From positions 1 to 64,000 of the IMG/VR virus record IMGVR_UViG_3300044630_002434: a stretch of 64,000 nucleotides of DNA. One strand, 5' to 3'. The translations under genes were made by a program, and so were the position numbers. Below are positions 13,301 through 60,079 of the stretch, one piece after another; position 1 is the first letter of the stretch; the number at the start of each line of letters is the position of its first letter. A model generated the notes under the pieces. It worked only from the letters and a program-made list of their open reading frames with translations, did not search any database and was not told where the DNA came from. The stretch comes from a virus.

Positions 13301-16300
13301 CTTCTGTTCTTCTATAGCGTCCACTATTCTTAATAGTCCCATCGGTATTTAATGAAGAAAGAGTCCAACCACCTTGACTAGTATCTTGAGTTAAAATCAT
13401 TTCATGCTCTACTGAAGGAACACTAATCTTGTAGGAAAGACCAGTAAAACTATTATCATCAGATGCAATAGATACTTCTACTGGAGCACTTGCATTTAGT
13501 GCGGCTAGTCTTCCTTCAATAGCACTCTTAAGATTTGCTACTTCACGAGCATTAAGACGCTTTTCTCTAGGTGCTAGAGGATAAGGACGCGAAGCCGTTC
13601 CGCCAGTAGACCTTGGAACTTCAATAGCCTCTCGTTTTTCTAAGAACTTTTGTATGACCGCGTCGCCAGCGTCATCAACAGTGTCAAACTTGTTTGGGAA
13701 TTCAACACCGTCAGCAGTTGCTACATATTTACCACTTGCAGTTTCGTAGTAAACCATTCCTTGAGTCCCAGTTACCCTGTCAGTCATGTTGATTTCTTTT
13801 GTAGCCGAAGACTGAGAAACAGACAAGTTTTGACGAGCACCTGGAACTGCATAAGCCCTACTAGGGTATGACTCCAAATCCTGAATGTAAGCGTATGTGT
13901 TTGGTGCTTCGGTTATAGGATTACCTGGAAGAACCTGAGGATTAGCACCAGCAGGTCCTGAGTCTCCTCGCGAAGATGGGGAACCATTAGCACCAGCAAG
14001 ATAAAGATTTGCTTGCGCTGCTGCTTCATTTAGAGTATCAAAATCATCTGAGAAATCAGGATTTCTACCTTGTTGCATTGCCATTGACGCTAACCAAGCA
14101 GATGTTCTAAACTTACCCTCAGGAGTAGCAGTGATTGATACTGCTCTACCACTTGAACTATTTTCGTAGCCGCGTCTTGTCCAGAAAACACCCTTAAGGT
14201 TTTCATCTACTGTAGACATATTAGTTATTGCATATGAACCTGGAGCCTGAAGACCTGCATTTATAATCTTTTGATAAGCCTCTGTCTGCACATCAGGAGC
14301 ATCAGTGTCGGTAGGAGTGTCGCCCTCTCGAGAAGGTCTCAAATCAAGGAGACGGAACTCTGCTCGCGCAATTGCTACATCAAGGTTAGAAATGTACTCA
14401 GTCTCAAGTGAATCAAAATCAGATTCTATATCTACTGAATAGGTCTTACGGTCTTCATCCCATTCAATAGTAGCAACATTTGTCGCATCTATTTTATCGC
14501 TTAAGTCTCTTAATTTAATAAATTTGTTGCCTGCACTAGCCTCTATTGCCTTGTCATTTCTAACATTAAATGAGTCTGCAGAGTTTTGTAGTGCTCTTGT
14601 TCTTTCCTCATCAGTCATAGGGATAGGAGTCGGAGCCTGTGGAGTAGTAGGAGTTGGAGTGGTAGTAGAAGCGCGGTCTATATTTTCTTGTTCAATAGTG
14701 TTGATAATCTGTTTCGCTCTATAAGTTACACCTCCAAGGTTGTCAAAATACTCAATCTCTCCATAAGGACTTCCCTCAGCAAATGCTTGCAAAGAATAAG
14801 CCTGACGGTTTTCAGCCCATTCAATGTTTACTTGACCATCGCTGTCATCGCCTACGTTAGATATTTTAAGGATGTCTCCATCCATTTCAGCATCTCTTAG
14901 CCCATTATCTCTGTCAGCATTAAATATTTGCACATAGGTCTCTAGCGCTGCTGTTCTTTCTTCAGAGGATATTGCAGTAGGTGATGGCTCTGGTGTCGGG
15001 GTAGGAGTAGGTGTTTGAACCTGTGGAGTAGTAGGAGTTGGTTCTTCGCCTCTACCAGTAGCGCGTCGCCAAATTGGACCAAGAACTCGGTCTTTAGGGT
15101 CAGCAAGTTCAACAATTCTCTCGGATAGAGGCGGAAGACCAGCACGTTCGCGGTACTCGCGTACTCTTTCTTGGCGGTCTAGCCACATTTGGTAGGCACG
15201 GCGTGTTTCAGCAACACCCTTACTTAAACCAGTTCCACCTCGCTTTGATACGTATGGACGGATTACTGTCTTAAATTGAGCACCAGCACCTCTACCAGTG
15301 CCTTCAACTCTACGTACTTCAACAGTGTATTTTTCAGTTGTCTCAAACTTACGAGGCGCTTCAATTCCTTTTTGAATATTCAATAAAGGACGTTCCATGT
15401 TTCGTGCTTCGTCGGAAACTGGAGGAGCGAATCTTAGGTCTTCCGTATCTCTACCGCGACCATTCAAGAATAAGAAGTCAGTAGCATACGTTCCATAAGA
15501 ACCATCAGCAAATGCTACATAGGCATAACCCTTACGGGCACGGTCTCCTGAGTTTTCAATTGTCTCCCAAGCGACAATAACTCCTTCGCCTCTACCTTCG
15601 TTCCATCCGTCATACTGGTGAACGACGCGGTCGCCAAGACGAGCCTGATTTTGTCCATCGGCAAATATGTAGTTTTCTTCAGAGTAGCGTTGCCAATCTT
15701 TATCGCCAATCATTCTTACTCGGAAAGGCTCTTCTCCTGGTAGAAGTCCACTAGTAACAAATGGAGATGAGTCTCCAGCAGTAGCATCCTTTATATCCTG
15801 ACCAAAGTTAGGGTCACTGTTGTAGACTACTCGACCTTCAGCAAGAGCGCGTTGTAGGTCTGCATACATAATGTCTGCTTCTCCACGGCTTGATGCTTCT
15901 TGGTATGCAAGTTCAATATTGTTACGCTCTGGGTCACGAATGATTACGTTGTAGTGCTCTGGGTCGCCTTCAAAACCAGCGCCAGATTGAAGTTCAATAC
16001 TGAACTCTCTGCCATTAGGGTCAACTACTGTAGTACTATCAATCTGCCCATGAGGACGAACAATCCTATCTCCAATAGGAGTTCCAGGAGCAAATACTGT
16101 TGGCTCGTCTAACGCTTCTTCGCCAACATCAACAGTAGAGAGCGTGTCGCGGATTGCTTCTCCACCATCGATAATACGGGTAGCAGGCTGACCAAATACA
16201 CGACCTTCTGTTAGGTCTCCTGCTTGTTCAGGGTCACTCATGTCTAGTGGAACTTTTGAACCATCTGGATTTACCCAGTTAAATATGTCCACCCAGTCGC

Positions 16301-19300
16301 CACGGTCTGTCCAAGCCCGTCGCTCTGCACGATTGTCGCGCTCTAAATAAGCGCCATCTTGAATTCGCGAGCGTCTTTCATTTTGCTTTTGTTCCTTTGA
16401 GCGGGCTGGCTTCTTAGGAGTTTTTACTTCTGGCTGTAGGGACTTGCTAATTTCTTTGCCAGCAGATTTTGCATCCTCTAGAGTTTCAAATCTTTGGAAG
16501 TTGTCAATATCTGGTGCTTCTTCCCAGTTGCTTAAGCCACTATCCTTGAAGACACCAACTTCATAACCGCCACCAAAACGCTTAGGCATCTGCATAATTG
16601 TAATTCTGTAAGCATTGGCATCTTTATCAAATACTATTTCTTCAGACCTCTGTGTTGGGTAAGTAATATCTGAAATCTGCGAAGGCTTTTCTTCATTAGT
16701 AGGTTTTGTACCTTCCATAGATTCAAACATCTCTAAAGTAAGAGCAACAATGTCTTCATGCAATGCGCGTAATACGCTGTCTCCGACCTCTTGGGCTTCT
16801 TCAACAGAATTAACAATATTTTCTTGCTCGCCAACTAAGTCGCCATTGTCGTCAAATACCTTGGTAGTAGCGGTTAGTACTCCATCGCCACTTTCTTCAA
16901 TAGTTGTTTCAGCACTGAAATCATCAATGTTTTCATCAGAGTGCTCTAATCTTGGAGCAGGTTTTTCACTAGGCTCTACAACATTAGTTAGCGATGAGTC
17001 GCCTTCTTCACCAGTGTTTAGAGAGTTGGCGCTGATTGGACGACGAACATTATCAAGACGTGTTCCGCCCCAATAAGGACCGCTAGTAAATTCTTCGCCA
17101 GTTTCTAGGTCAACTCGGTGAATAGTAAATCGGTTTTCTTCAACCTCTTCAACTCCAACAACCTGAGACCAACGGTCACCCTTACGGGTACGCATAAAGT
17201 CACCAACTTCAAGAGAGTTAGCACGAACATCTTCGCGGTCTATTGGACGAGTGTTAGCGTCATCTAATACCCATTCGGCTGTACCTAAACGAGTTGGCTT
17301 TGATACTAAGTCTTTAGATGCCTTTACGCCAGCGATATCTTCAGCAGATTCTGGAGTAATAGTTGGAGTAGTGTTTTTTGAATCTTCAATTAACTGTTCA
17401 ACAGTGACCTCTTGACCAGCAAGTGCATTCTCCACAGCCTGAGCCATGTTCCATGCTTCAAGGTCGCGTAAGTAATTAGGGTAAGTTACTGAGTCGTAGA
17501 AGGCTAAATCCTCTGCGTGCTTAGCAGCAATTGCATCAACATCAAATTGACCATTGGCAAGATTTTCTGCTTGAGCGCGGTCTAGAAGTTTTTCAAAGAT
17601 TAACGCTGCTGCTTCTGCATCAGCATCGGCGCTATGCCAATTCTCTAGTGATACTCCATACTCTTCTGCAAGTTTACCTAATGCAACTCCCTTACGAGGG
17701 ACACCAGCATCAGCATTAATTGCTCTAGCAAGAGACTGAGGGTCAATGTAACCTGTAGGAGTGAAATCTACGCCTGTGTTAGATAGTGCATTCTCCAAGA
17801 ACCTACGGTCAAATCTAGAGTTCTGAGCGCCAAGAATTGTATCGGCTCCAGCCCAATCAGCAAATGCTTGATGAGCATCTGCCATGCTTGCTTGTTGTTG
17901 TAAGAAATCATCCGATAAAGGATTTCCATCGCCATCTTTAAGGTTGTCTTTTGACCAACCTTCAAGCGGTCTGCCTGGATTCATGTACATATTGAATCGG
18001 TCTACTACAACGCCATCTTTAATCTTTACAGCACCAAGTTGGACAGGGTTTTCTGTATTAGGGTCAAGACCAGTTGTTTCGTAGTCAAAGAACGTGAAAG
18101 TCATACCCTTTATATTTTCTCGAAGTTGTTCCCAACTTCCAGCGTCGCGCAACATCTGAGCAAATGCGCCCTGTGCGAATGGGTCACTTACTTCGAATGG
18201 GGAGCGTGGCTCGCGTGTAGGAACTGCGCGAGGTGCTTCTCTAAGGGCAGGATTGACTTCCTGAGGGTAGTCAACTTCTGGAGCATCGCTTGGGAAGTTA
18301 TAGAGTGATGCAGCGTTAGCAATATTTTGGTTGTACTGCTTAACAAACTCTGGGTCAGTGTTACGAACATAAACGCCGTCAATGACTTCGCCTTGATTAA
18401 TTGCAGGTAGCGGACCAGAATCAGGAAGTTCACTGTTACGAATAACTTCCATTTTGTATTCGCGACCGTTACGACCCTCTTGACGAGGTTTCCACATCTT
18501 TTCCTGTAATTCGTGTCCTGGGTAGTAACCCTTAACTACAAGAAGACCTTGAGAGATTGCATCTGCATGGTCTGGATTGTTTGGGTTAGGGTCGGAAACA
18601 CTAGCAATAACAAAATTACCCTTAGTTGGGTCAGCCATAACATCGCCAGGCTTAAGTTCATTTGCATGAACTTTTACGCGGTGAATGTCCGTGCCTGCGT
18701 CAAATTCGTAAGAGGCTACGTCGTATTTATTAGACCAACGCGCACGCGCTGCATTAATCATGCCGCGCCATCTAGCGTAGGTAAGTTTGAATTCTTGGCT
18801 GTTGCTTCCTCCAAGGAAATCCCCGTACTGAGGCTTATGAATCTCTGGGAGATTGCCTGACATAGGCATGTCTTCTTCTGGTATACCTCTTACAAAGTTA
18901 ATAGGAGTTATGTTCTTCCACAACTTCTCTTGTACTGGATGTCCTGGGAAGTAACCCTTAACAGAAAGTTTTCCGCGAGAATCTGGCTCGGTTCCAACTT
19001 CAGTAATAGTGAAGCAGTCGCCGATTGTTAAATCTCCAGGTTGCATACTTGTAACAGGAGCACTGAACTTTACAATGCTTGCTTTACTAGGAAGATTACT
19101 TTCCGTATTAGGACCCCAGATATCCTCAGGTAGAGTTCCATCTTTAGGAGGGTCTTGCATTATGAAATCAACAGTTTCTTTTGAAGTTTTATCTCTAGGA
19201 TAATCGTCCATTACGTACTCAAAGATTTCTTTTGAAGTTCCGCCCTTAGGAGGGTCTTGCATTATAAAATCTTCTCGCGGAGCCTGCTCAGGTACAACAA

Positions 19301-22300
19301 CTTTTTTCTGGGCACCTACAGCATCGCCGTAGTCAGAGAACATTTCGCCCTGACCAGCAGTATAACCAGCAGTGTCTTCTGGGTCGTAAGCCATAAATGT
19401 GACATCAGGCTGACCATTGTTAAAGTCTGAGAAGGTATCTTTGTTCCAGTCAGATGGCGCTTGTGAATCGTCCCAAGGTAGGCGGGCTACAGTCTTTAGA
19501 CCGTGGTCACCGTAGATTTCTGGAAGGGTGGTGTCAAATGCATCAGCAGTGATAGCACCTTCTTGCGTAGCAAGAGGAACCATTGCATGTGCGACACGCT
19601 TATCCTGCGTGTCACCCTTGAAAACAGAAACAAGGTCAGTACCCTTAAGGGCAAAACCTGACTTGCCATCTGCAGAAATAAACATACGCATATCTACGTA
19701 CTCTTCTGGGGTATAGATAAACACAGACGCGCCAAATTCGTTAGCATTCTTTGCATCAGTAATAGCCTGATGGAAAATTGCAGCATTTTCTGGACTTGAC
19801 TTTAGTTCGTGCATAGTTAGTGGTGTAATACCACCATCTTGCATTAATTCTATTGCTTCAGTAGACGGAGTGAATGAGTTTGCCGTCTCTACATTGCCTA
19901 CAGGTAAAGAGACATTGCCTTCGCCTGCTGAGGTGTAAAGTCGTACTCCTTCGCCATCTCTAAGTCCACGAAGTCGGTAGACGCTTGCTCTGGCTGGTTT
20001 TCCTGCACTGGCAAGTTCGTCTGCTCTGGCGTTGAGTCTTGAGGCTCGTTCTGCATTTGGTTCTCCAATTCTTTCTGGCTCTGGCTGAGCCTCTGTAATA
20101 ATACCCGATGGTACCTCTGGCTTGTCAAGTTCAGGCTCAATGCCTTCGCCGTCCATCATTGCTTGCATTTCTTCGTCAGATAGGTCACCAGATGAGCGAC
20201 CCTCTTCTACGTCAGAGGCAACTGGCTTGTTTTCAGCCTGTGCAGCCCAAGCGCGGTCTGCAATTTCTTGAAGGATTTCGTTGGTGTCTTCACCTTGAAG
20301 TTGGAGCGCATCTCGTATAAATTCTGAGGCAATGTCTACATAGAACTCATCGCCGTTTTCATCGAAGTATGTAAATGGTGTTACTCCTACTTCGTATTTG
20401 CTGCCCTCTTCGCGAGGCTCTAAGGAAAATTCGAGATTGTCAATTAATTCTTGAGTATCAAAATTTTGTGCAAGAACATATGGGTCATTAGTCCAACCTA
20501 CAGAAAAACCATCTTGATTTAAAGCATCGCCTTCTTCAACTGTGGTGATGTCTTCAAGAGCGACTGGATTAGGGTCAATCTGCGTGTAGCCTTCTGGAAG
20601 TTTAATATCTTCATTACTTGGCAAGAATGGAACGTGGTCAAAACCACTATCAACCCATGACTGCAGTTCATCTTCAGTCAAACCTTCAATAAGTGCTGGG
20701 TAGTTAGGGTCCTCTTCCTGAGCGTCTTCTTCGGCAGTGTTTACATCTTCAATTGGCTGTTCGCCCTTTGCAGGGGTTACTTCGCTAACTTCTGGAATAT
20801 CTTTAATGCGGTCAAGAGCGTCTGCAACATCCTCTCCCTTGACTTCTTCAATAAATCCACTCTTAGGAGGGTCGTAAAATGCAGTAATTTCTTCTTCGTC
20901 TTCTGCCTTGCTAGGTCCACTCTTAGGAGGGTCAGAAATTATATTAATTTCTTCGTCTTTTGCGCGGTCTAGACGAGCCTTACCCTTTTCATAAGTATCA
21001 GCAACAAACTTATCTGCATTCTTACCTTGCTTCTTAAGAGCAAAGTAAAGTGCTTCTGCTGAAACCTCTTCTATACCCTCGTTAAACTCTAAACCGCCGT
21101 ATCCTAATCCGTTAATACGGTCTAGGCTGTCTCCGATAAGAGCCTCTTGCAAAGCGTTAGCAATTTCCCGTGGCTTAAATTTAGTAGCAAGTGTTTCAGG
21201 GTCATCGGTGAAGTCAGTGCTGTCTTCATTTACGCGACCACTTGGGGTGTAGTCTCCTTGCTCAAGTTCGTAAGCGCCCTGCGGAACTTCAAGAGCAGGA
21301 ACAACTTTCTTAGGAAGTTGTGCAATAGGTTGTTTTTCTTCTTTTTTGTCTTGCTGTATTTCCTGTCCACCAAGTTTTTTAGTAATAGCCTCTGAGCCCT
21401 TACGGAAATCATCTTCAAAGCCTTGAAACTTCTTTTCAAATGTTTTTTGGTTAGGGTTTGTAGTTTCTTTATCGCCAGCAATTGCGTCAGCAATTCTTTT
21501 TGCTTGCTCGGCAAGTTGTTCAGGAGTTCGGTCTGAAGGAGCAGTACCGTCACGCAAAAAGTTTGCAATATTACTTGCTACGTCGCGAAGCGAACCTGCG
21601 GTTTCGTTGTTTGCAATTTCATCAAGACCACTAAGAAGCATGTCGTCAGTAAGTTCTGAAGGAGTTTCTGCTCCACCAAGAGCATCCTTGATGGACTCAT
21701 CAAGCATTGAGGTCCAGTTGTCGCCCTTAGCAACTTCGCCTCCGTTTTCGTCAATTAAACGGTAAGACTTGGAGCCATATTCATTGTTAGTCTGAGCAAC
21801 AGTGTAAACGCCATCCGAGAAAGCCTTTTCTCCTGCGTTTCCTTGGAAGTTCTCTACTGCTTCCCAGCCTGCAGGGGAGTCCACAAACTCTAAATCTGCT
21901 TCTGCAATAATGTCGGACTCATCTGCTGCTGTAGTACGAGCAGTGGCAGGGCTGTAGCCGTCTTTAGTTTTTCCTGGAAGATATGCTTCAATGCCTTCTG
22001 CAGAACTTGCAGGAACACGAACAATACCTTTAGGAGTTTCAACATCAAAAGTATTTGAATCAGCAGCAGCGCCAACCGAGCGACCAGTTAGCCAACGAAC
22101 TGAACCATCGCCAGTACGCACAAGAAGACGCATACCGCCACCTTGTTCAGCGAATCGACCTAAGCGGTCACGACGCTGGCGCATAGCACGCATACGACGT
22201 GCCCAGTACGAGTTGCCATCTCCAGAGAATGCTGCAGTAATTGTTTCAAAGGCTTGTACGCCTTCTTGAGTAGCACCTAAGCGAGTTGTAGCGTACTTAC

Positions 22301-22757
22301 GCTGTTCTTCGGTTGACTCAACCGAGAAAGCAGAAGCAAGAAGAGGAGCGTGTTCTTCAGAAATACGAGGGTCAGCCAAGTACCACTGCATTTGAGCATC
22401 TGCAAGAGCAGAAGCAGTCATTGCATGAGGTGCTGCTGAGAATGGGTGAGCGGTTGTAAGAAGGTCAGAGTACTTAGAAACTGAAGAGAAAGAAACGTGA
22501 CCTTGCGCAAGATTAATAAATGACTTAAGTTCATTGAATGCATAGTTACGACGACCAGCAAAAGAACTAAAGTGACGGCTTTCATTTAAAGCGCGCCAAA
22601 CTACTTCGACAGCAGATGTATCAGTTACTTGACGTAGTGGAGCAACTCTGGAGTTAGCAGAGGCAACAACAGCCAATACGTCTTGGCGGATTAAAAGAGC
22701 CTGTTCAACTGCGGAACGACGCTTTACGCCTTTAGTTACTTTAATTCTGTTATTCAC
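10398..22757 (-). CDS. giant polyvalent, probably virion-associated protein (GNAT-like, DnaQ exonuclease, GNAT-like, HipA/PI3K-like kinase)
   Basis: 4119-aa ORF between portal and protease; FDYETTG..QNSRFD..WHSADAD (DEDDh); GGYVWAITGF GNAT-like; FVK..SEIASN..DRGSNN..FDH kinase motifs. Confidence 0.8.
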   Translation of the reverse strand: MNNRIKVTKGVKRRSAVEQALLIRQDVLAVVASANSRVAPLRQVTDTSAVEVVWRALNESRHFSSFAGRRNYAFNELKSFINLAQGHVSFSSVSKYSDLLTTAHPFSAAPHAMTASALADAQMQWYLADPRISEEHAPLLASAFSVESTEEQRKYATTRLGATQEGVQAFETITAAFSGDGNSYWARRMRAMRQRRDRLGRFAEQGGGMRLLVRTGDGSVRWLTGRSVGAAADSNTFDVETPKGIVRVPASSAEGIEAYLPGKTKDGYSPATARTTAADESDIIAEADLEFVDSPAGWEAVENFQGNAGEKAFSDGVYTVAQTNNEYGSKSYRLIDENGGEVAKGDNWTSMLDESIKDALGGAETPSELTDDMLLSGLDEIANNETAGSLRDVASNIANFLRDGTAPSDRTPEQLAEQAKRIADAIAGDKETTNPNQKTFEKKFQGFEDDFRKGSEAITKKLGGQEIQQDKKEEKQPIAQLPKKVVPALEVPQGAYELEQGDYTPSGRVNEDSTDFTDDPETLATKFKPREIANALQEALIGDSLDRINGLGYGGLEFNEGIEEVSAEALYFALKKQGKNADKFVADTYEKGKARLDRAKDEEINIISDPPKSGPSKAEDEEEITAFYDPPKSGFIEEVKGEDVADALDRIKDIPEVSEVTPAKGEQPIEDVNTAEEDAQEEDPNYPALIEGLTEDELQSWVDSGFDHVPFLPSNEDIKLPEGYTQIDPNPVALEDITTVEEGDALNQDGFSVGWTNDPYVLAQNFDTQELIDNLEFSLEPREEGSKYEVGVTPFTYFDENGDEFYVDIASEFIRDALQLQGEDTNEILQEIADRAWAAQAENKPVASDVEEGRSSGDLSDEEMQAMMDGEGIEPELDKPEVPSGIITEAQPEPERIGEPNAERASRLNARADELASAGKPARASVYRLRGLRDGEGVRLYTSAGEGNVSLPVGNVETANSFTPSTEAIELMQDGGITPLTMHELKSSPENAAIFHQAITDAKNANEFGASVFIYTPEEYVDMRMFISADGKSGFALKGTDLVSVFKGDTQDKRVAHAMVPLATQEGAITADAFDTTLPEIYGDHGLKTVARLPWDDSQAPSDWNKDTFSDFNNGQPDVTFMAYDPEDTAGYTAGQGEMFSDYGDAVGAQKKVVVPEQAPREDFIMQDPPKGGTSKEIFEYVMDDYPRDKTSKETVDFIMQDPPKDGTLPEDIWGPNTESNLPSKASIVKFSAPVTSMQPGDLTIGDCFTITEVGTEPDSRGKLSVKGYFPGHPVQEKLWKNITPINFVRGIPEEDMPMSGNLPEIHKPQYGDFLGGSNSQEFKLTYARWRGMINAARARWSNKYDVASYEFDAGTDIHRVKVHANELKPGDVMADPTKGNFVIASVSDPNPNNPDHADAISQGLLVVKGYYPGHELQEKMWKPRQEGRNGREYKMEVIRNSELPDSGPLPAINQGEVIDGVYVRNTDPEFVKQYNQNIANAASLYNFPSDAPEVDYPQEVNPALREAPRAVPTREPRSPFEVSDPFAQGAFAQMLRDAGSWEQLRENIKGMTFTFFDYETTGLDPNTENPVQLGAVKIKDGVVVDRFNMYMNPGRPLEGWSKDNLKDGDGNPLSDDFLQQQASMADAHQAFADWAGADTILGAQNSRFDRRFLENALSNTGVDFTPTGYIDPQSLARAINADAGVPRKGVALGKLAEEYGVSLENWHSADADAEAAALIFEKLLDRAQAENLANGQFDVDAIAAKHAEDLAFYDSVTYPNYLRDLEAWNMAQAVENALAGQEVTVEQLIEDSKNTTPTITPESAEDIAGVKASKDLVSKPTRLGTAEWVLDDANTRPIDREDVRANSLEVGDFMRTRKGDRWSQVVGVEEVEENRFTIHRVDLETGEEFTSGPYWGGTRLDNVRRPISANSLNTGEEGDSSLTNVVEPSEKPAPRLEHSDENIDDFSAETTIEESGDGVLTATTKVFDDNGDLVGEQENIVNSVEEAQEVGDSVLRALHEDIVALTLEMFESMEGTKPTNEEKPSQISDITYPTQRSEEIVFDKDANAYRITIMQMPKRFGGGYEVGVFKDSGLSNWEEAPDIDNFQRFETLEDAKSAGKEISKSLQPEVKTPKKPARSKEQKQNERRSRIQDGAYLERDNRAERRAWTDRGDWVDIFNWVNPDGSKVPLDMSDPEQAGDLTEGRVFGQPATRIIDGGEAIRDTLSTVDVGEEALDEPTVFAPGTPIGDRIVRPHGQIDSTTVVDPNGREFSIELQSGAGFEGDPEHYNVIIRDPERNNIELAYQEASSRGEADIMYADLQRALAEGRVVYNSDPNFGQDIKDATAGDSSPFVTSGLLPGEEPFRVRMIGDKDWQRYSEENYIFADGQNQARLGDRVVHQYDGWNEGRGEGVIVAWETIENSGDRARKGYAYVAFADGSYGTYATDFLFLNGRGRDTEDLRFAPPVSDEARNMERPLLNIQKGIEAPRKFETTEKYTVEVRRVEGTGRGAGAQFKTVIRPYVSKRGGTGLSKGVAETRRAYQMWLDRQERVREYRERAGLPPLSERIVELADPKDRVLGPIWRRATGRGEEPTPTTPQVQTPTPTPTPEPSPTAISSEERTAALETYVQIFNADRDNGLRDAEMDGDILKISNVGDDSDGQVNIEWAENRQAYSLQAFAEGSPYGEIEYFDNLGGVTYRAKQIINTIEQENIDRASTTTPTPTTPQAPTPIPMTDEERTRALQNSADSFNVRNDKAIEASAGNKFIKLRDLSDKIDATNVATIEWDEDRKTYSVDIESDFDSLETEYISNLDVAIARAEFRLLDLRPSREGDTPTDTDAPDVQTEAYQKIINAGLQAPGSYAITNMSTVDENLKGVFWTRRGYENSSSGRAVSITATPEGKFRTSAWLASMAMQQGRNPDFSDDFDTLNEAAAQANLYLAGANGSPSSRGDSGPAGANPQVLPGNPITEAPNTYAYIQDLESYPSRAYAVPGARQNLSVSQSSATKEINMTDRVTGTQGMVYYETASGKYVATADGVEFPNKFDTVDDAGDAVIQKFLEKREAIEVPRSTGGTASRPYPLAPREKRLNAREVANLKSAIEGRLAALNASAPVEVSIASDDNSFTGLSYKISVPSVEHEMILTQDTSQGGWTLSSLNTDGTIKNSGRYRRTEEALDRINLSSRNAVDGYHMARVQAQRTRMQTLQQELKDYVPNSRASARVDSAGSEGTWDYGFTHKPAGYVNEYRVDVNIDPKGENTAIVTVVSPDGTMDSYEIPSNANLDTVLESVKTKVDELATTNSEESLATKRARADAKAEEILEAELNLQLAPNPIPLHRRFLNIAKNLLTPVQQIEFDGSMAGVSNPNFDRIDDNFVVTPNGDPVTQKHFQDQGWEAEKAAQIAHAGVSRPSIDRVIELIRSGDSRELNKAVALGMGVGNVFGGDLTIEGVSAGGRINSSGTGNMDVSVRIKSTETGKTYSASRQFRFVDGKLDNVYNASMFIEGAKPSGFSSLFNQYAENWYIANGAKSITVSAAAGGFSHPGSATGGYVWAITGFNWNGAGVGYNQLKSRYDYIQRGYTSGERVDYYGSSTGYARAKASMDKVVQQAFDAYGVSDWEGLRQAMTSDAELAPTFPTPREMAMIGWTPDLRANEQHWFGKAYSMDTGFSGKKTLIPTSTERVQNSAYENMKKAIDKLAASGANAFENNEKIKSHFATRSTYDGIGEILAPYADELTQLTGYEGKRSVSQLSPPAKAALGKYLATILADGNDPVFTNGDSPSDKAKDASIKADFVSMLDALQRDRLSFEPNRTKLSEAGETVKNLPSEVFDTSMTPGETKNVTNQETGEILPFTITKLVQQNTTSPEDGPTISGAYAGASDIWLVQSTKTEERFFVKNVSTETNVQSEIASNIVGRALGIVGLPVVDRQGDANSTRIITSELGTNLSIPSINSDELVVGANSSPELDTPHLVRMSESGIFDVNAVDVASHVSINNALGILAMDAIIQNNDRGSNNVMMVRGNDVPNTPVHENVAEAWIPIPFDHADAVAIRTAIEQTSNGYQSPYDYLTTSLGVSNDLGKQIFDRVGPVTFKMLMDKRIAQALQELKSRYSSGYMPQDVLDMISDRASEILNYTTDNWSDIYG

Positions 22758-30468: not shown

Positions 30469-31413
30469 TTACGCATTAACCTGCACTTTGTCAAACCCAG
30501 ACACGCGAGTCTTTTCATAGACATTAGCCACTACTTCCGCCCAGATAGACGGGGTATGTGTATGAGGTTGGTAGCCTCCAGCACCGCCAATCAATACGCG
30601 CCCTTGCGAGTAAGTATTAGCAATGTCCGCAACTATGTCTGATGCGTATGCGTAGCCATCATAGTCAAATTGCAAACTAGCAAGCGGGTCAGTCTTGTGA
30701 CCATCCGCACCAGTAGCAAGCAACACAACGTCAGGCTTATACCTATCCGCAAGTTCGCGTATCTCATCCATAGCGTTAGCAAACTCCAAGTTTCCAGCAC
30801 CTCTAGGCAATGCCCAGTTGTAAACTGAATTCTTTTCGTCGTGACCACTACGCCCAGTTCCGGGGAATACAGTTCCGTCGTGAATACTCATAGTAGGAAT
30901 GTCGGTGTTGTAAAGCAATGCCTCAACTCCGTCGCCGTGATGAGCATCCCAGTCGATGTAGATAGTCCGCAAACCTGCTTCAGCAAACTTTTTAGCAGAC
31001 CAAGCAATGTCATTAAACACGCAGAAACCACTTGAGTAGTCATAGTTAGCGTGATGCTTTGCGCCTTGAGGATTAAAGCCAACTTGCACTTCTCCAGCAA
31101 TCATCTTCTCAACTAACCGAGCCGTACCTGCAAACATCTTGAGCGCAGTAAGACCAAGTTCTGGTTTAGTTCCTGCCCACTCATTCGATAAGCCAAGTAG
31201 CACTTCTTGAATGTAGGCAGGGTGATGCACTTTGTGTAGTTCTTTAATGTCTGCATCTGTGTATTTGGGTGCAACAATCTTCACGCTATCCTTACCTAAC
31301 TTGTCAATAAGCAAGTCGGCAGCAAGTAATGCGCGTTCTGGATTAGTAGGGTGACCTTCACCTAACTGCCAATCAAGATAATCATTTCCGTATGCAATGT
31401 GTAATTTTGTCAT
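30469..31413 (-). CDS. Zn-dependent histone deacetylase family (AcuC-like) deacylase
   Basis: HPTNPER, HHA, GFCVFND, IDWDAHHGDG, FPGTG, GADGH..DPL, GGY motifs all present. Confidence 0.92.
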   Translation of the reverse strand: MTKLHIAYGNDYLDWQLGEGHPTNPERALLAADLLIDKLGKDSVKIVAPKYTDADIKELHKVHHPAYIQEVLLGLSNEWAGTKPELGLTALKMFAGTARLVEKMIAGEVQVGFNPQGAKHHANYDYSSGFCVFNDIAWSAKKFAEAGLRTIYIDWDAHHGDGVEALLYNTDIPTMSIHDGTVFPGTGRSGHDEKNSVYNWALPRGAGNLEFANAMDEIRELADRYKPDVVLLATGADGHKTDPLASLQFDYDGYAYASDIVADIANTYSQGRVLIGGAGGYQPHTHTPSIWAEVVANVYEKTRVSGFDKVQVNA

Positions 31414-31920
31414 TTAGTCGTTTCCTTTCTCTTCTAAATTTAGTAACCACTTCTCGTAGTCTTTGTTGCAAAGGACAAGAACACTTCTTGTCTTTCGCAG
31501 GTGTGTAATAGTTTCTTCAGCCGTGTAGCCTCTACTGATTAACACTAATGCGCTAACTAATCCAGACCTATTAAGCCCAGACAAGCAACGAATCAAAACA
31601 TTCTTTCCCGCATCAAGTTCGTAGTTTACAAAGTCCACCAAAAATTTCAGTTCTTCTTCGTTAAACTCGGTAACACTTCCGTCTTGAAAGTGTTGCCGAA
31701 ACTCTCTAACGTGCCAATCCACGGGATTACTCCAAGCGTGTAGTGTCACCACGGTATCAAAGTCCTGCTTAGTAATCCGTGGCTCTATCTCTGGCTTGCC
31801 AACAATGTCATCTTCATCAGTACCACCCATAAATAAATTGGGATACACTTCTGTCCATAACTCTTTTGGCATCAGTTCCGCATAAGTTCCGAGTCCTTCT
31901 TCTTTTTCGTATTTCGTCAT
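31414..31920 (-). CDS. dual-specificity protein phosphatase
   Basis: EVYPNLFMG; CX5R loop VLIRCLSGLNRSG; abuts the HDAC gene. Confidence 0.88.
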   Translation of the reverse strand: MTKYEKEEGLGTYAELMPKELWTEVYPNLFMGGTDEDDIVGKPEIEPRITKQDFDTVVTLHAWSNPVDWHVREFRQHFQDGSVTEFNEEELKFLVDFVNYELDAGKNVLIRCLSGLNRSGLVSALVLISRGYTAEETITHLRKTRSVLVLCNKDYEKWLLNLEEKGND

Positions 31921-32025
31921 TTCTTCCTTTCTCCTGAACTATAACAAGTTAATAACCTCTTGTCAAATTGACAGGAAAGAAATAACCCCCGCACCGCAAG
32001 CGGTACAGGGGCTAGACCTTTTAGA

Positions 32026-32184
32026 CTATTCCGCCCAATGATGATTAAGTAGTTCCAACTCATCCGAGTTGTCAGACCACGCTTTCATCCTGATGATGTT
32101 CACTATCTGGTCAAAGGTTAGTTCCTCGTCTGCCTTGTAAGTGATGTTCAAGGTTAAAGGAATCTTTGCTGTGTAGTTTTCCAT
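32026..32184 (-). CDS. hypothetical early protein
   Basis: Cassette promoter at ~32234-32262, GAGGGA RBS. Confidence 0.55.
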   Translation of the reverse strand: MENYTAKIPLTLNITYKADEELTFDQIVNIIRMKAWSDNSDELELLNHHWAE

Positions 32185-32383
32185 TGTCTGGGTTTCCCTC
32201 TTTTCAGTTATACACCAACTTGGTGATAACACCATTCTATCATCTAACCTGACATTTGTCAAACACAAGTATTTACCGCGTGTCTGGTGTCAATTTGCTT
32301 TTTGTCAGGTTAATGTGGTATGCTTATCTTGTAGGACAACGAAGGGTCACACAGAAGAAAGCCTCCCGAAAGGGGGGCTTTCT

Positions 32384-32569
32384 TTATTTGTCTAGAATTC
32401 TAAATACGGGTTCGCAAGGGTCGCCACCCTCTTCAGCGTATTCCTGTTCTTCAGGTGTTAGGTAGTCCCAGCCACTATCGTGTACCGCACAATACTGTTC
32501 GCTAATCCACCCTTTTGTTATACCGAACAGCACCCATTCTGCGCGTTCATCCCATTCTTCGTCTTGCAT
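32384..32569 (-). CDS. small acidic phage protein
   Basis: WVLFGITKGWIS..YCAVHD....EEGGDPC motif. Confidence 0.65.
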   Translation of the reverse strand: MQDEEWDERAEWVLFGITKGWISEQYCAVHDSGWDYLTPEEQEYAEEGGDPCEPVFRILDK

Positions 32570-32587
32570 CTCGACCCCTTAAAAATT

Positions 32588-33148
32588 TCAGTTATCTTTA
32601 TACTGTACCGTAATGTGAATAGTTCCGCCAGTACCTGAATCCAAGTAAGACGAGATAGTTATGGCTTCCTTTAGGTAAGCCTTTGCTTCTTCCACTGTGA
32701 CCTTAGCCCCAACCATTGAATGCAATGCGCCAAGCGCGAATGATGAACCGCTACCAATACCGTAAATACCTGCAACATCTCTTGCCCAGCAGTAGTCGTT
32801 AGCAATTTCATAGACAATCCCATTGACACAAACTATGATGTCAAACTCTTGGTTTCCGTCTTTTGCGTAGCCATTTGTTTCAAAGTAGCCTCTGATTACT
32901 GGAATCAGTTTAGTAGAAACAAACTTATCGAGTTTAACTCCACTCAAGTTCTCCGCATCAGGCAAAGGAATGTCCGCAAGTAAGTTCACAGCCCTTAAAT
33001 CTCCCGCTGCGCCTACGAGATAGTTTCCGTTCTTAGATACTTTCTTTATCCCATTTGGTAAAAGATAGACTCTGTTGTCTGAGGAAATCTGAGAGTCGAA
33101 CCCAACAACCGTGAAACCCTCTCCCTGAATTGCTGCAATAGTTGTCAT
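32588..33148 (-). CDS. Ntn-hydrolase, proteasome-beta/HslV-like protease
   Basis: N-terminal MTTIAA (Thr1 nucleophile), DSQ, conserved Lys, GIGSGS, D..TGG. Confidence 0.85.
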   Translation of the reverse strand: MTTIAAIQGEGFTVVGFDSQISSDNRVYLLPNGIKKVSKNGNYLVGAAGDLRAVNLLADIPLPDAENLSGVKLDKFVSTKLIPVIRGYFETNGYAKDGNQEFDIIVCVNGIVYEIANDYCWARDVAGIYGIGSGSSFALGALHSMVGAKVTVEEAKAYLKEAITISSYLDSGTGGTIHITVQYKDN

Positions 33149-33715: not shown

Positions 33716-33741
33716 ACCTCTAGTCTACCTAAAAATTTCAG

Positions 33742-33989
33742 TTTGTCAAGTTAGTCAAAATACTCTATGACAACCGCGCCCACGAAAGAAACCGCACCAA
33801 TTACTAGAGTTGCGATTAGGTAGGTAGGTGTTATAACTACTGGCTTTAGTAATCCAATAAACATAAGTTGTAGTTCCAGTAATGCCAATGGCAATGAGCC
33901 AATAGCAACATAAGTTAGTACGGCTTGTAAGTTAAATAAAAACATCTTGCTCTCCTTTTCTTTATCGCCCCTTGCGATAACTCTATTAT
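33742..33989. repeat. 248-bp direct repeat, copy 1
   Basis: Identical by inspection to 40198-40445. Confidence 0.93.
33751..33945 (-). CDS. 64-aa two-TM membrane protein, copy 1
   Basis: MFLFNLQAVLTYVAIG...VIEYFD, AAGGAG RBS. Confidence 0.75.
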   Translation of the reverse strand: MFLFNLQAVLTYVAIGSLPLALLELQLMFIGLLKPVVITPTYLIATLVIGAVSFVGAVVIEYFD

Positions 33990-34171
33990 AACATAACTCT
34001 TTTGGCTTGTCAAGCATTACTAAACATACGGCAACATTTGATGAAACCAAGACAAATCGTCTTTAGTAATCTTTCCTAGTTTAAGACCAAGGTAGTAAAG
34101 GTCGGCAACTTTTTTCTTGTAGTTTCTATCCATAAAACTATTATAGAGTATTAACCTGACTTTGTCAAGTT

Positions 34172-34298
34172 AAACGCCAGACGCGCCACCGAAAGGGGTT
34201 AAGGTGACGCGCCTAGCATTTGTGAGTGGGGAGAAAGGGGGGCAACCCCACTCGTATTCGGAGCATAGGGAGAAGGGAGTAAACCCTTGCTCTACGAA
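34172..34298 (-). ncRNA. candidate sRNA with three C-rich (anti-SD) hairpin loops
   Basis: Three consecutive hairpins, no ORF, TGcTAAAGT extended -10 just upstream. Confidence 0.55.
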
Positions 34299-34447
34299 CT
34301 CCTCTACTTTAGCATAAAAAAATTTCAGTTATGCTTCCGTGTCGGAATTTTTAACAATCTCCGCAGACTGACTTGCTCGAAACTTTCTTCGAGTCAAGCC
34401 CAAACCTTTTACCGCATCTCCAGCAGTTAGTAAAGATAGTCACTACT

Positions 34448-34666
34448 TCACTCCCCAATCTCTGGAATGTCGTAGTCATTAAGAGTCTGGCACTTCGGGC
34501 AAGTCCAAACACCGCGACCCCAATCGTCAAAAGATACTTCCTCTTGACCCTCGTACTGGCAAGCAACTTCATCTAAACCAAGTTCGATAGTGCCTAAACA
34601 AACTACTTCAATGTCTGCTGAATCCGCGTAGAATCCTGACCCTCTTAGTGAACCTTCGTAACTCAT
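34448..34666 (-). CDS. small Cys-containing (Zn-ribbon-like) protein
   Basis: WTCPKCQ; promoter, leader hairpin and RBS present. Confidence 0.65.
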   Translation of the reverse strand: MSYEGSLRGSGFYADSADIEVVCLGTIELGLDEVACQYEGQEEVSFDDWGRGVWTCPKCQTLNDYDIPEIGE

Positions 34667-34985
34667 TTTGTTTCCCTTCTTTATCGCCCCTTGCGATAAC
34701 TCTATTATAGCATACTTCTTTTTAAGTTGTCAAGTTATCTAACAACCGTGCCGTTCCAGTCTGACGGTAGTAGGTATTTAGCCTTCAATGAGTCGTGACA
34801 GGTATCTACAACTATCTGACAAACATCATCTATTATGTGTTCGCCTATCCCGTCAAGGTAGGCTCTTAAATTTTCCTGCAACTGTTCTTGCAAATCTTTA
34901 ATGCTCATTTATTTCTCCTTTCATAAAAATAAATAAAAGTTCCCCGACCCTAAATTTCCAAAATTATCTAGGGGCGGGGAATTCT

Positions 34986-35180
34986 TTAGTTGTCGTTAAT
35001 ACCTAGCAAAGCGAAAATTTCATCTTCGTTTAAGACAGTAACCTTTTCTCCACTATCATCAACAATCTTTACGCTAGTCACGCGGTAAGAGTTAGCAACC
35101 AAGTCACGAACTTCTTGCGCCGTGTTAGCGGTAAAACTGTATTCGTTATCTTTCGACTTCATTGTTACGTTGTAAGCCAT
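34986..35180 (-). CDS. hypothetical protein
   Basis: MAYNVT start after AGAAGGGAG RBS. Confidence 0.65.
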   Translation of the reverse strand: MAYNVTMKSKDNEYSFTANTAQEVRDLVANSYRVTSVKIVDDSGEKVTVLNEDEIFALLGINDN

Positions 35181-35194
35181 TTCGTTCTCCCTTC

Positions 35195-35510
35195 TTGGCT
35201 CTACCCTTTCCGCACTTTGCGGAAAAGTTTTCAGTTTATGAAGTAGGTAGGTGGCTCTCTCAACCACCTGTATGCGCTTCCCCACGCTTCCTATTCGGCT
35301 ACCTACTTCAGTTTTGACTGGCGAACTACGCACCGCACTCCAGTTGTAGTTGTCTTATCTAGTGCAAGACCAGTCAAGTCTTAATAAAGTGAGCCTTGGT
35401 CTGCAATCATTGTTAGGTAGTTGTAGTCAGGCTATTTGCCTTTTCCGTTCACTAACGACCCGTTACCCGTTTATCCTCGGCACTCACTTCGTATCTCTAT
35501 TTAGTTATAA
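35195..35510 (-). ncRNA. candidate multi-domain structured RNA or long 5' leader
   Basis: Perfect stems 35239-50/35299-310, 35314-21/35370-77, 35387-93/35483-89; own promoter TTGCGA..TAGACT. Confidence 0.55.
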
Positions 35511-35544
35511 CCCTAGTCTATCATACTAGGTCTGCTTTCGCAAG

Positions 35545-35623
35545 TCCCAAGAGTAGGAATCGAACCTACCGTGCCAAAGCGAGTGATTTACAGTCACCTT
35601 CCCCACCTTGGGGAATCCTTGGG
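35545..35623 (-). tRNA. tRNA-Tyr(GTA), atypical, no encoded CCA
   Basis: Acceptor CCCAAGG/TCTTGGG+A, anticodon arm GGTGA-CTGTAAA-TCACT, T arm GTAGG-TTCGATT-CCTAC, 12-nt variable region. Confidence 0.8.
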
Positions 35624-35976
35624 GTTATTTAATTATGAGTCTAGTTTATCATACTAGTTATCTCTTGTCAAGTTCCTCGATTAGTCTTGTTCGGCGTACA
35701 ACATCTTTGGTACTCCAACCTTGACCAATCTCGGCGCAAGACTGTAAGTAATAATCTAAGTCTTGAATTTCATCGTGAAGTTCATTGACCGTGAGTTCTT
35801 CTACTTGTTTGTTTCTTGTAAGCATCTTTGCCCCTTTCGTTCCTCAAGTCTATAACATCTACCTGACAAATGCAAGTCACGGGGAAAGATAGTTTAACGA
35901 AGGCGGGACTCAGAATAAAAAATTTCAGTTATGCCCAAAAAAGAAACCCGCATTTCTGCGGGCTTCCATTTTTAGA

Positions 35977-36150
35977 TTAGTAGTTTTCGTTCACCCAATC
36001 CACAACGTCTTGCATTGTGTCCGCGCTACGCGCTACCGCTAGAAAGTTCTCATCTTCTAGCAATAGGTGTTCGGAAACCGTAGTTTCTCCCGCAACGAAA
36101 CCTAGTACCACTCTCAAATTTAGAGTTGTCATTAGTTGTCCTGTTGTCAT
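35977..36150 (-). CDS. hypothetical early protein
   Basis: Promoter at 36196, GAGGGG RBS. Confidence 0.6.
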   Translation of the reverse strand: MTTGQLMTTLNLRVVLGFVAGETTVSEHLLLEDENFLAVARSADTMQDVVDWVNENY

Positions 36151-36519
36151 TTTTTCACCCCTCTCCGTGTGATAACACGAGTCTATCATACCTACCTGAC
36201 AATTGCAAGCAAATAAGAAAACCCCCGTATTAACGGGGGCTTTCTCCGTATCGCTTAGGCGTAGATAACCTTAAACACTAAGTCCATAGCGTGACGCTCG
36301 GCATCTGACCAAGCACTTTCACCTCTAAACTTTTTAACTGTCTTGCCATTGACGCGAACGATACCACTCATTGAATCTGACTCAACGGTGATGCCGTGTC
36401 CATAATCTGTAGTTTCCATAACTACCCCTTTCGTTATCTCTATTGTAGCGTATTAACCTGACAAATGCAAGTCATAAAGAAAACCCCCTCCGTAGAGGGG
36501 GCTTTCCAAGGGGTTCGCG

Positions 36520-40197: not shown

Positions 40198-40445
40198 TTT
40201 GTCAAGTTAGTCAAAATACTCTATGACAACCGCGCCCACGAAAGAAACCGCACCAATTACTAGAGTTGCGATTAGGTAGGTAGGTGTTATAACTACTGGC
40301 TTTAGTAATCCAATAAACATAAGTTGTAGTTCCAGTAATGCCAATGGCAATGAGCCAATAGCAACATAAGTTAGTACGGCTTGTAAGTTAAATAAAAACA
40401 TCTTGCTCTCCTTTTCTTTATCGCCCCTTGCGATAACTCTATTAT
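40198..40445. repeat. 248-bp direct repeat, copy 2
   Basis: Identical by inspection to 33742-33989. Confidence 0.93.
40207..40401 (-). CDS. 64-aa two-TM membrane protein, copy 2
   Basis: Identical to 33751-33945. Confidence 0.75.
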   Translation of the reverse strand: MFLFNLQAVLTYVAIGSLPLALLELQLMFIGLLKPVVITPTYLIATLVIGAVSFVGAVVIEYFD

Positions 40446-40771
40446 TCCATAAGGATTGACATTTGTCAAGCCTAGTTCGCTTCCGCGATAGCGTGTCGGC
40501 GTTGGGCAGACCTATCGCGGTTACGGCGTGTACGCCTATCCGCAAACTTTGCAGACTTCTGGTTTAGGACATAGTGTCCCGAACCTGTCACTAGATTGTC
40601 TAGTGGACTCTTGCGCTTAGCCATCTCTGACTCCTTTCAATAAATCTATTGTAGCACACTTCCCTGACATTTGTAAAATTACCCGCGCAAACTTTTAGTA
40701 AAAAATTTCAGTTATGAATTTTAAGAAAAAAGAAAACCTCGCCCTTTCGGGTGAGGCTCTCTTTCTACCTA

Positions 40772-44791: not shown

Positions 44792-44951
44792 CTTGCTCTC
44801 CTTCTATCAGTAAGTCCTTCTTGCTGATAAAACTATTATAACATACTTCCCTGACATTTGCAAATTAAGATTTTTAGCGCGTGTCGCCCTAAAAAATTTC
44901 AGTTTTGCCAAACAAAAAAATCCGCGCACTTGGCGCGGACTTTTTGTGAGG

Positions 44952-58840: not shown

Positions 58841-59018
58841 AAGGTTTAAATAATGTGTAATCAAATGGAAAATGCTGCGCATATCCATAAACTGAAAAAA
58901 GAAGTTTGGTTAGAAGTGTTAAGCGATTACCCAAGCGAAGGTGAAGAAGAGCGGTTATGGCATTGCTTGCATGGCAGGGCTTATGGAATCAACTGCAAGA
59001 AGTGTGAGAGAGACGACG

Positions 59019-59435
59019 ATGAATAAACCAAAAGCAATCATTGTTGACATTGATGGAACTGTTGCGCACAAAACCGACAGAGATATCTATGAATACGAAA
59101 AGGCTCTTAGTGATTCCTCTGACGCAGTAATTATTGAAGTAATCAAAGCACTCTGGCTTCAGGATTATAAGATTATTTTTATCTCTGGACGTTCAGATGA
59201 ATGCATTCAAGTTACTCGCGAGTGGCTTCGACTTCACTGTCCTCCATATATCGGTCTCCATATGCGACAAGCAAAAGACTTTCGTAAAGATGCAATCGTT
59301 AAGAAAGAACTCTACGAACAATATGTTAAAGACCACTACGACGTACTCTGCGTTTTTGATGACCGTAATCAAGTTGTAGATATGTGGCGCGAGATTGGTC
59401 TTAAGTGTCTACAAGTACAGCCCGGAGATTTCTAA
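59019..59435 (+). CDS. HAD-family phosphatase (polynucleotide kinase 3'-phosphatase domain-like)
   Basis: IVDIDGT, ISGR, MR...DFRKD..VK, FDDRNQVVDMWR..GL.CLQV..GDF. Confidence 0.88.
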   Translation: MNKPKAIIVDIDGTVAHKTDRDIYEYEKALSDSSDAVIIEVIKALWLQDYKIIFISGRSDECIQVTREWLRLHCPPYIGLHMRQAKDFRKDAIVKKELYEQYVKDHYDVLCVFDDRNQVVDMWREIGLKCLQVQPGDF

Positions 59436-60079
59436 TACATACATATGACGTAAGACAGATAGAATCCAAAGAGACGCATGACTACCTTCTTAATATCCAT
59501 TATGCAAAGCGTCTGCCACAGATTATGTATGCATACGGACTATTCAGAGACGACAACCTAGTAGGGGTTATTACTTATGGTCGTCCCCCTGCACCGTCTG
59601 TATCTAAAGGTGTTCTAGGAACAGAGCATAAAAACCTAGTCCTTGAACTCAATCGTTTATGTCTCAAAGACAATCTTAAAAACGAAGCATCACAACTTGT
59701 TGCAGGTTCTTTCAAACTTCTTCCTAAACCTCTTGCAGTTATTTCTTATGCGGATACATCACATGACCATCTCGGTATTGTTTATCAAGCAACAAACTTT
59801 TTTTACACAGGGCTTTCTTCCAAGCACACAGACTGGGCGGTAGAAGGAATGGAAGGAACTCATACGAGAACCTTTAACCATATTGCCGATGCAATTCCCG
59901 GAGATAAAAAGAATCTTGAAAAAATCAAAGAACTTTATGGTGACCGTTTTTACTACATTGACAGACCAAGAAAACATCGATACATTATCTTGTTAGGGAG
60001 CAAGTCAGAAAAAAGAACGCTAAAGAGTCTTCTAAAGTACCCAGTTCTTCCGTACCCAAAAAGGAGTAAAGATGCTTGA
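59405..60079 (+). CDS. Mom-like adenine-modifying (GNAT-fold) enzyme
   Basis: HYAKR, GLF..LVGVITYG.P, LELNRL, NEAS, ISYAD, H.G.VYQATNF.YTG, KHRY; true start uncertain. Confidence 0.8.
   Translation: MSTSTARRFLIHTYDVRQIESKETHDYLLNIHYAKRLPQIMYAYGLFRDDNLVGVITYGRPPAPSVSKGVLGTEHKNLVLELNRLCLKDNLKNEASQLVAGSFKLLPKPLAVISYADTSHDHLGIVYQATNFFYTGLSSKHTDWAVEGMEGTHTRTFNHIADAIPGDKKNLEKIKELYGDRFYYIDRPRKHRYIILLGSKSEKRTLKSLLKYPVLPYPKRSKDA

Follow-up and report, generated by a model that had tools for sequence, protein, structure and literature searches.

Several structured RNAs that lie beside phage tRNA genes, including RNAC and RNAD of phage T4 as well as GOLLD and ROOL, are still without a known function. 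ROOL is much larger than the 65-105-nt modules described below. RNAC and RNAD are described as small RNAs from the T4 tRNA region (PMC3014915), and GOLLD and ROOL as phage or prophage RNAs of unknown function that often lie near tRNA islands, with many GOLLD members over 800 nt long (PMC12286853). HDV-like theta ribozymes likewise adjoin phage tRNAs, with a cleavage site that abuts the tRNA 3′ end (PMC10879173). Small or ornate RNAs of unexplained role beside phage tRNAs are thus a kind that is already known (PMC3014915; PMC12286853). New with respect to Rfam 15, and to a limited literature search on such RNAs in freshwater actinophages that returned nothing relevant, are the RNA families D1-D3 and their behaviour as cassettes.

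These families were found in a 64,000-nt stretch (the window) that makes up the first 64 kb of the record IMGVR_UViG_3300044630_002434 (119.7 kb, estimated to be 89% complete). Around the modules lie small minus-strand genes, most of them without a Pfam family, and the tRNA-Tyr (GTA) next to the modules is the sole tRNA that ARAGORN detected in the whole 119.7-kb record. Because the record carries a WhiB gene (82422-82919 of the record), which we take to indicate an actinobacterial host, the host of this uncultured lake phage group is probably actinobacterial. The structured sequence at 35195-35510 is real and non-coding, and it looks like three separate small RNA genes, not a single large RNA or a riboswitch. 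Our main reading, to which we assign a probability of roughly 55%, is that D1, D2 and D3 form an array of autonomous, co-transcribed small structured RNA genes within an 'RNA-gene island' anchored by tRNA-Tyr in lake phages whose host is probably actinobacterial. The features of the locus are as follows:

35643-35671, minus strand: promoter P1 of the tRNA (TTGACA, 17-nt spacer, TAAACT, TG before the -10 hexamer; 10 of 12 consensus positions)
35544-35623, minus strand: tRNA-Tyr (anticodon GTA) without encoded CCA, found by ARAGORN
35515-35543, minus strand: promoter-like site P2, beginning right behind the tRNA (TTGCGA at 35543-35538, 17-nt spacer, TAGACT at 35520-35515, TGA before the -10)
35494-35508, minus strand: AU-rich leader AUAACUAAAUAGAGA of 15 nt, common to the RNA cassettes
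35386-35490, minus strand: module D1, an unbranched irregular hairpin of ~105 nt with six homologues and covariation
35314-35377, minus strand: module D2, a three-way junction of ~64 nt with hairpin-2 loop GAGYG
35239-35310, minus strand: module D3, a cloverleaf-shaped four-way junction of ~72 nt, seen from folding energy and perfect arms
35205-35227, minus strand: generic 5′-UTR hairpin CUUUUCCGCAAAGUGCGGAAAGG, seen from the fold
34986-35194, minus strand: RBS (AAGGGAG; GGGAG at 35191-35187) and a 64-aa ORF (ORF64) with its ATG at 35180
3′ of ORF64, minus strand: large hairpin and U-run

Like T4 RNAC and RNAD, the array belongs to a phage tRNA region: it lies directly 3′ of tRNA-Tyr, carries the promoter repeat of that tRNA and is covered in parts by contigs from RNA libraries. 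It differs in phage group and host, and in that its cassettes shuffle and have a promoter and leader in common. GOLLD and ROOL, whose family traits include large size and a multimeric cage, differ from these separable 65-105-nt modules, which have no Rfam match. Unlike the tRNA neighbours of theta ribozymes, this tRNA is flanked at its 3′ side by the P2 repeat and the AU-rich leader, and there is no Rfam match to the HDV family.

The three domains with closing stems of the original prediction were all found on the minus strand, with stems that now measure 9, 8 and 11-12 bp. D1 is closed by 35490-35482 with 35394-35386 (seven Watson-Crick and two G-U pairs), D2 by 35377-35369 with 35322-35314 (eight Watson-Crick pairs and a U-G) and D3 by 35310-35299 and 35250-35239 (12 nt, 100% complementary). 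Each module is a self-contained fold with its own long closing helix. The own promoter and the A/U-rich start like that of the tRNA, which had also been proposed, correspond to a 32-nt direct repeat (84% identical; 35498-35529 and 35626-35657), in which P2 and its leader are a copy of P1 and the leader of the tRNA. By eye, P2 agrees with the consensus at 8 of 12 positions, and our promoter scan, with its threshold of 9 of 12, did not call it; the homologous sites in the relatives L039 and L045 read CTTGACA, the consensus version.

P1 overlaps the palindrome CTAGTATGATAAACTAG at 35657-35641. More generally, a palindrome CTAGT-N7-ACTAG spans the extended -10 of RNA-gene promoters (35513-35529 and 35641-35657 in the window; also in L039 and L045), and it could be an operator or form an RNA hairpin in read-through transcripts. 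Rfam in gathering mode lists no tRNA at 35544-35624; the best clan member in E-value mode is tRNA-Sec (34.3 bits against a cut-off of 47), and the tRNA copy of L043 scores 37 bits on RF00005 (cut-off 29). The missing entry looks like the result of clan competition rather than of an odd tRNA.

As a whole, the minus strand of 35181-35543 folds at -103.2 kcal/mol (z = -3.07; 1 of 100 shuffles as stable), compared with -87.3 kcal/mol (z = -2.09) for the plus strand of the same stretch. D2 and D3 together gave z = -4.27 (0 of 200 shuffles), with z = -3.26 for D3 (2 of 200) and -1.75 for D2 (12 of 200), while the energy of D1 was no better than that of its shuffles (z = -0.68; 43 of 200). The family, which the first inspection had not recognised, gave no match either when we searched the whole window against Rfam 15 at gathering scores; at E ≤ 10, the stretch 34900-35900 gave seven matches, all of which lie outside 35195-35510. 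For the modules of the relatives, too, Rfam had no match, and a distant blastn search of 34900-35900 against INPHARED phages returned none. Comparing the array with the whole 119.7-kb record on both strands by short words yielded only 10-13-mers at chance level, apart from the promoter repeat.

A 9-mer, ACUACAACU, had been noted in two of the domains, and it is indeed present at 35342-35350 and 35419-35427. The window contains five copies, compared with 0.71 expected. Since two of these belong to a duplicated gene and homologues do not conserve the motif (it is altered in four of the six D1 homologues, where only UACAA is invariant, and replaced in the L044 copy of D2), we gave it no weight and rejected it as a meaningful conserved feature.

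We searched viral and metagenome contigs for relatives using flanking proteins as anchors, a word from the tRNA and words from D1. The flanking small proteins each matched just the one close relative. The layouts of the relatives were as follows:

L002 (= G001): tRNA, P2 and leader, then D2, D3, hairpin and ORF64; exactly the 111 nt of D1 are absent and the rest is 96-100% identical
L043: tRNA, P2, D1, D2 and D3, then a non-coding stretch F in place of ORF64
L044: tRNA, P2, D1 and a variant D2 (D2′), no D3, then F
L039 (= G002): tRNA, promoter and leader, module E, a third promoter and leader, D1, U-run, then a promoter with generic hairpin
L045: promoter, D1, promoter and E, with no tRNA in 8.8 kb
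G003 (L040, L068): D1 among protein genes, flanked by two copies of an mRNA-type promoter, with no tRNA in the fragment

The presence, absence and order of the modules therefore vary independently among the relatives. Because domains are gained and lost independently in this way, the predicted RNA of ~320 nt is better described as three units with separate histories: of the proposed novel multi-branched ncRNA, the structured, non-coding character and the lack of an Rfam match held up, and the single molecule did not, as its modules are separable. D1 lies behind the tRNA-proximal P2 in three of its six loci (the window, L043 and L044) and directly behind a promoter of its own in the other three (L039, L045 and G003). 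Apart from the D2 hairpin that is replaced and the modules that are missing, the modules of the window are 96-100% identical to those of L002, L043 and L044, as is the tRNA-Tyr; the upstream ORF (ORF55) is 90-93% identical in the relatives, and ORF64 95% in L002. By these identities, evolution is slower in the modules than in the flanking ORFs.

The two additional modules, E and F, are absent from the phage of the window. Module E (L039:6345-6635, minus strand; also L045:7565-7870) is a very stable RNA of ~290 nt behind the same promoter and leader (z = -4.64), with unpaired C/U-rich stretches that contain CCUCC and one hairpin that covaries strongly between L039 and L045. Its last domain has a tRNA-like geometry: the closing stem has 7 bp, and a hairpin of 5 bp with a loop of 7 nt abuts the 3′ strand of that stem. 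Behind this domain comes the same A-CTTGACA that follows the real tRNA. Module F (L043:975-1095, and L044 on the minus strand behind D2′) is a conserved non-coding stretch of ~120 nt that ends in a terminator with a covarying stem and has no Rfam match.

D1 is conserved as an RNA and shows compensatory base changes. We aligned six sequences from related phages (89% mean column identity) and obtained as their consensus fold a single unbranched hairpin built from five helices, in which 96.7% of the cells pair. Both sides have changed in 6 of 25 pairs, compared with a shuffled mean of 1.9 and with 0-2 in slid controls, and none of 500 shuffles reached six, a significance that these controls overstate because there are only six sequences and the phages are closely related. 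Covariance-model scores were 126-137 bits. The homologues differ by 1-nt indels in four alignment regions, which excludes a coding sequence; coding-type conservation, which would have spoken against an RNA, was not seen. Several pairs, invariant or frequent, are G-U on the minus strand and would be A-C mismatches if read on the plus strand, so that the minus strand is the functional one. Long unpaired stretches are invariant as well, which argues for a specific partner. One of them, UACAA, is identical in all six copies amid variable flanks and mostly unpaired in the predicted ensembles (per-base probability 0.35-1.0).

The D1 model (R1) detected a single copy in each of G000, G002 and G003 and gave no match in G001, and four of the six D1 loci lie within 500 nt of a tRNA-Tyr. 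Among genome contigs, D1 words occurred in 13 stretches, none of which was D1 by R1 (best 17.9 bits, E = 0.035). The word pattern recurred in six contigs of one Planctomycetota MAG (L055, L057, L059, L062, L065 and L067) and three of one Betaproteobacteria MAG (L060, L063 and L064), none of them D1 by the covariance model; these are probably matches to an unrelated repeated element of those genomes. The metagenome scan for D1 gave five stretches, of which L041 was discarded as a GC-rich chance match and L042 as the same 41,292-base contig as L039.

The covariation expected of a structured RNA was found for D1, to some extent for D2 and not for D3. In D2, 3 of 24 predicted pairs are compensatory, all owed to the one divergent sequence, L044, where hairpin 2 has a different sequence that still pairs in the same architecture. 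The three copies of D3 are near-identical, with a single variable site that lies in a loop, so its fold is backed by folding energy and not by covariation. Letters that vary in L002, L043 and the RNA contigs fall into loops or spacers (at 35272, 35358 and 35386, and as one added base at 35311). D3 is flanked by direct repeats of AACUGAA (35313-35307 and 35236-35230), and L044, which lacks D3, has a single ACUGAA at the corresponding place. With its model (R2), D3 was found only in G000, G001 and L043 among the four records and 12 loci searched, and nothing was found in L044. In viral contigs, D3 words marked 35 and 10 stretches in two scans, of which BLAST showed only L023 to be real, and D2 words marked one stretch, L023 again. 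Genome contigs had no stretch with D3 words and one with D2 words, which we judged a chance match as it lies in a coding region of an archaeal MAG contig.

The spacers behind D2 and D3 start with the same AACUGAA as a recurrent intergenic motif, AACTGAAATTTTTT, which occurs in the window at ~34310-34325, ~33735-33750, ~35915-35935 and ~44895-44910 and also in L002 and L045, mostly between terminators and the next promoter.

In the window, neither D2 nor D3 has its own promoter, and both are contiguous with ORF64, so that a long 5′ leader is physically what is transcribed. The region could be one multi-domain RNA, a riboswitch-like or otherwise cis-acting leader that controls ORF64, as had been suggested at the outset. 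This would agree with our scan, which found no terminator-like site on the minus strand from the tRNA, and hence from P2, to the ORF; with RNA-library contigs that link D2-D3 with the ORF; and with the order D2, D3, hairpin, ORF64 being kept in L002. We nevertheless consider it unlikely. ORF64, which has no Pfam family, follows the modules only in the window and L002 and is swapped for unrelated sequence behind the same modules in L043 and L044, and D1 precedes D2, a promoter, module E or other genes depending on the locus. No riboswitch family in Rfam matches, and neither a terminator nor an RBS-sequestering helix was found. The hairpin that had been predicted before the RBS and ATG of the 34986-35180 ORF does exist (35227-35205); it ends 13 nt before the RBS GGGAG, which it leaves untouched, and has no U-tract on the minus strand. 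An A-to-G change in L002 keeps a U-G pair on that strand. Related hairpins with the loop CGCAARGNGCG precede other early genes of the window (~33975, ~40435 and ~40165) and occur in L039 and L045; the loop (CGCAAAGUGCG) and the position ~20 nt before the RBS recur, with compensatory stem changes in L039 and L045. The final hairpin is thus a generic 5′-UTR element of early genes and not part of a switch.

Two such hairpins belong to a near-identical duplicated segment (window 33751-34010 and 40208-40470, minus strand), each copy of which contains a 5′-UTR hairpin (UAUCGCAAGGGGCGAUA) and an RBS and encodes the same hydrophobic protein of 64 aa (MFLFNLQAVL…).

The position next to a tRNA gene raises another reading, in which D3 would be a tRNA-derived mimic or decoy, or D1 would bind tRNA-Tyr in trans through its invariant, exposed UAC-A (Tyr codon plus purine). 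In T-box RNAs, the specifier loop of Stem I binds tRNA through a codon followed by a purine. D1 resembles Stem I as an unbranched irregular hairpin of ~100 nt beside a tRNA-Tyr gene with UACA on the 3′ side of an internal loop, invariant in all six copies and mostly unpaired, although a motif this short may occur by chance: a codon of 3-4 nt is fairly often expected in a 12-nt loop. Four of the six D1 loci are near tRNA-Tyr, but in L045 and the G003 fragment D1 is found without a tRNA. Furthermore, D1 has no match to RF00230 at E ≤ 10, no antiterminator, T-box sequence or UGGN bulge was seen, and D1 does not lie upstream of an aminoacyl-tRNA synthetase or amino-acid gene, being an independent gene in other phages. 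GGUGGUU in D3 sits in a perfect stem. D3 itself folds into a four-way cloverleaf, one hairpin of which abuts the 3′ strand of the closing stem, and has a 9-mer, GUGGGGAAG, in common with the tRNA, yet its stems of 11, 2, 4 and 7 bp and loops of 5, 6 and 5 nt are not of tRNA length. ARAGORN finds only the tRNA-Tyr, and no tRNA-clan, T-box or YrlA model of Rfam matches D1-D3, so we did not accept D3 as tRNA-like. YrlA RNAs are modular, have a tRNA-like domain and also occur in phages; unlike them, the array lacks an Rfam match, and none of the 97 ORFs scanned (47 + 50; small ORFs only in part) contained a TROVE/Ro60, RtcB or RNA-ligase domain. Phage tRNAs are known counter-defences (PMC11555353), and this would suit a tRNA-related role. 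On balance we regard such a relationship as improbable.

A bolder version, which we think distinctly unlikely, would see the island as an RNA toolkit for counter-defence or takeover around the single tRNA-Tyr, built of swappable cassettes with one common promoter and leader, in which D1 recognises tRNA-Tyr through UAC-A like a free-standing T-box Stem I and D2, D3, E and F are alternative decoys. Were this true, D1 could protect, sequester or sense a tRNA that is targeted by host anticodon nucleases, and the putative decoys would be traded among phages as part of an arms race. tRNA-Tyr is reportedly among the phage tRNAs that act in counter-defence. Phage tRNAs can counter retron effectors (PMC11555353), so an anti-defence role of the island is conceivable.

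The patchy presence and absence of the modules, and the narrow distribution of D3 between short direct repeats, might also be expected of neutral or selfish sequence, such as small mobile inserts or the remains of duplicated tRNA/promoter cassettes, whose folds would be stable yet without function. This is highly unlikely given that the modules are more conserved than the flanking ORFs, that the pairing of D1 is kept by compensatory changes next to long invariant unpaired stretches, and that the variant sites of D2 and D3 lie in loops or spacers. Finally, a self-assembling architectural RNA in the manner of GOLLD and ROOL is extremely improbable: it would fit the phage context beside a tRNA, a 5′ part that varies more than the 3′ part, as described for GOLLD (PMC12286853), and the palindromic CUAG in the conserved loop of D2 hairpin 1, but GOLLD and ROOL of Rfam do not match and the array is 320 nt in all, made of separable modules.

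The 15-nt leader stands behind a TTGAC…TGATAG-type promoter ahead of D1, of D2 (in L002) and of E, and the tRNA carries a variant leader. Behind the promoters of protein genes of these phages, in the cases examined, the generic hairpin takes the place of this leader. The promoter and leader of the RNA genes also precede an unrelated candidate sRNA in at least nine further viral contigs (L079, L102, L120, L125, L140, L147, L158, L164 and L176). We infer from these sequence patterns that promoter and leader may be a dedicated expression cassette for RNA genes and that recombination between its copies would move the modules. The candidate sRNA of those contigs has two to four copies of UGAGCCUAGCAAAUAAG alternating with short hairpins in a sponge-like layout (e.g. 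L176 minus strand, ~880-1110 on the reverse complement).

Transcription would start at P2, with additional read-through from the tRNA promoter P1, and would run through D1-D2-D3 into ORF64. Host RNases may then cut the AU-rich single-stranded spacers, while the closing helices would shield the ends, so that stable RNAs of ~65-105 nt could accumulate as tRNAs do. The autonomy of the modules, their strong conservation, their closing helices and the AU-rich spacers fit stable trans-acting RNAs from a tRNA-containing precursor. D1, D2 and D3 would thus probably act in trans, without cis control of ORF64, and the invariant unpaired stretches suggest that D1 may bind or titrate a specific protein or RNA of host or phage. 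Cassettes would be shuffled by recombination between the promoter and leader repeats and between the short AACUGAA repeats. To our knowledge, the actinobacterial host group lacks Hfq, ProQ and CsrA. Pairing of D1, D2 and D3 with a neighbouring candidate sRNA (34172-34298) was equalled by 8, 82 and 24 of 100 mononucleotide shuffles, respectively. A comparison with the phage genome gave no pairing either, and no target or binding partner turned up.

Parts of the array are present in RNA libraries. Five RNA-labelled runs contain some of the sampled words of the stretch, and we compared the contigs of four; among DNA runs, fourteen contain at least half of these words. Contigs from three studies, 95-99% identical to the window, cover 34976-35362 (X15 and X16, from one study), 35297-35479 (X19) and 35573-35807 (X18); they indicate presence in RNA libraries and carry no strand, ends, level or proof of a single transcript, with DNA carry-over possible. 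X19 (35297-35479) bridges D1 and D2, and X15 (35131-35362) and X16 (34992-35345) bridge D2, D3, the hairpin and the ORF. We drew no conclusion from those parts of 34000-36300 that no RNA contig covers.

The locus provides small modules that can be separated, D1 with its covariation support among them, and these are moved like gene cassettes behind a common promoter and leader in abundant lake phages. Natural variants that have or lack a module are ready-made deletion controls, and the modules are small enough for structure probing and partner pull-downs. Should they turn out to be decoys or tRNA binders, the phage-host conflict would gain an RNA layer.

The phage also carries unusual genes (window 30469-33148, 58941-60079 and 10398-22757), among them a histone-deacetylase-like protein, a dual-specificity phosphatase and a proteasome-subunit-like protein. 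The same regions encode a PNKP-type phosphatase, Mom and an ORF of 4119 aa, to which the WhiB gene elsewhere in the record can be added.
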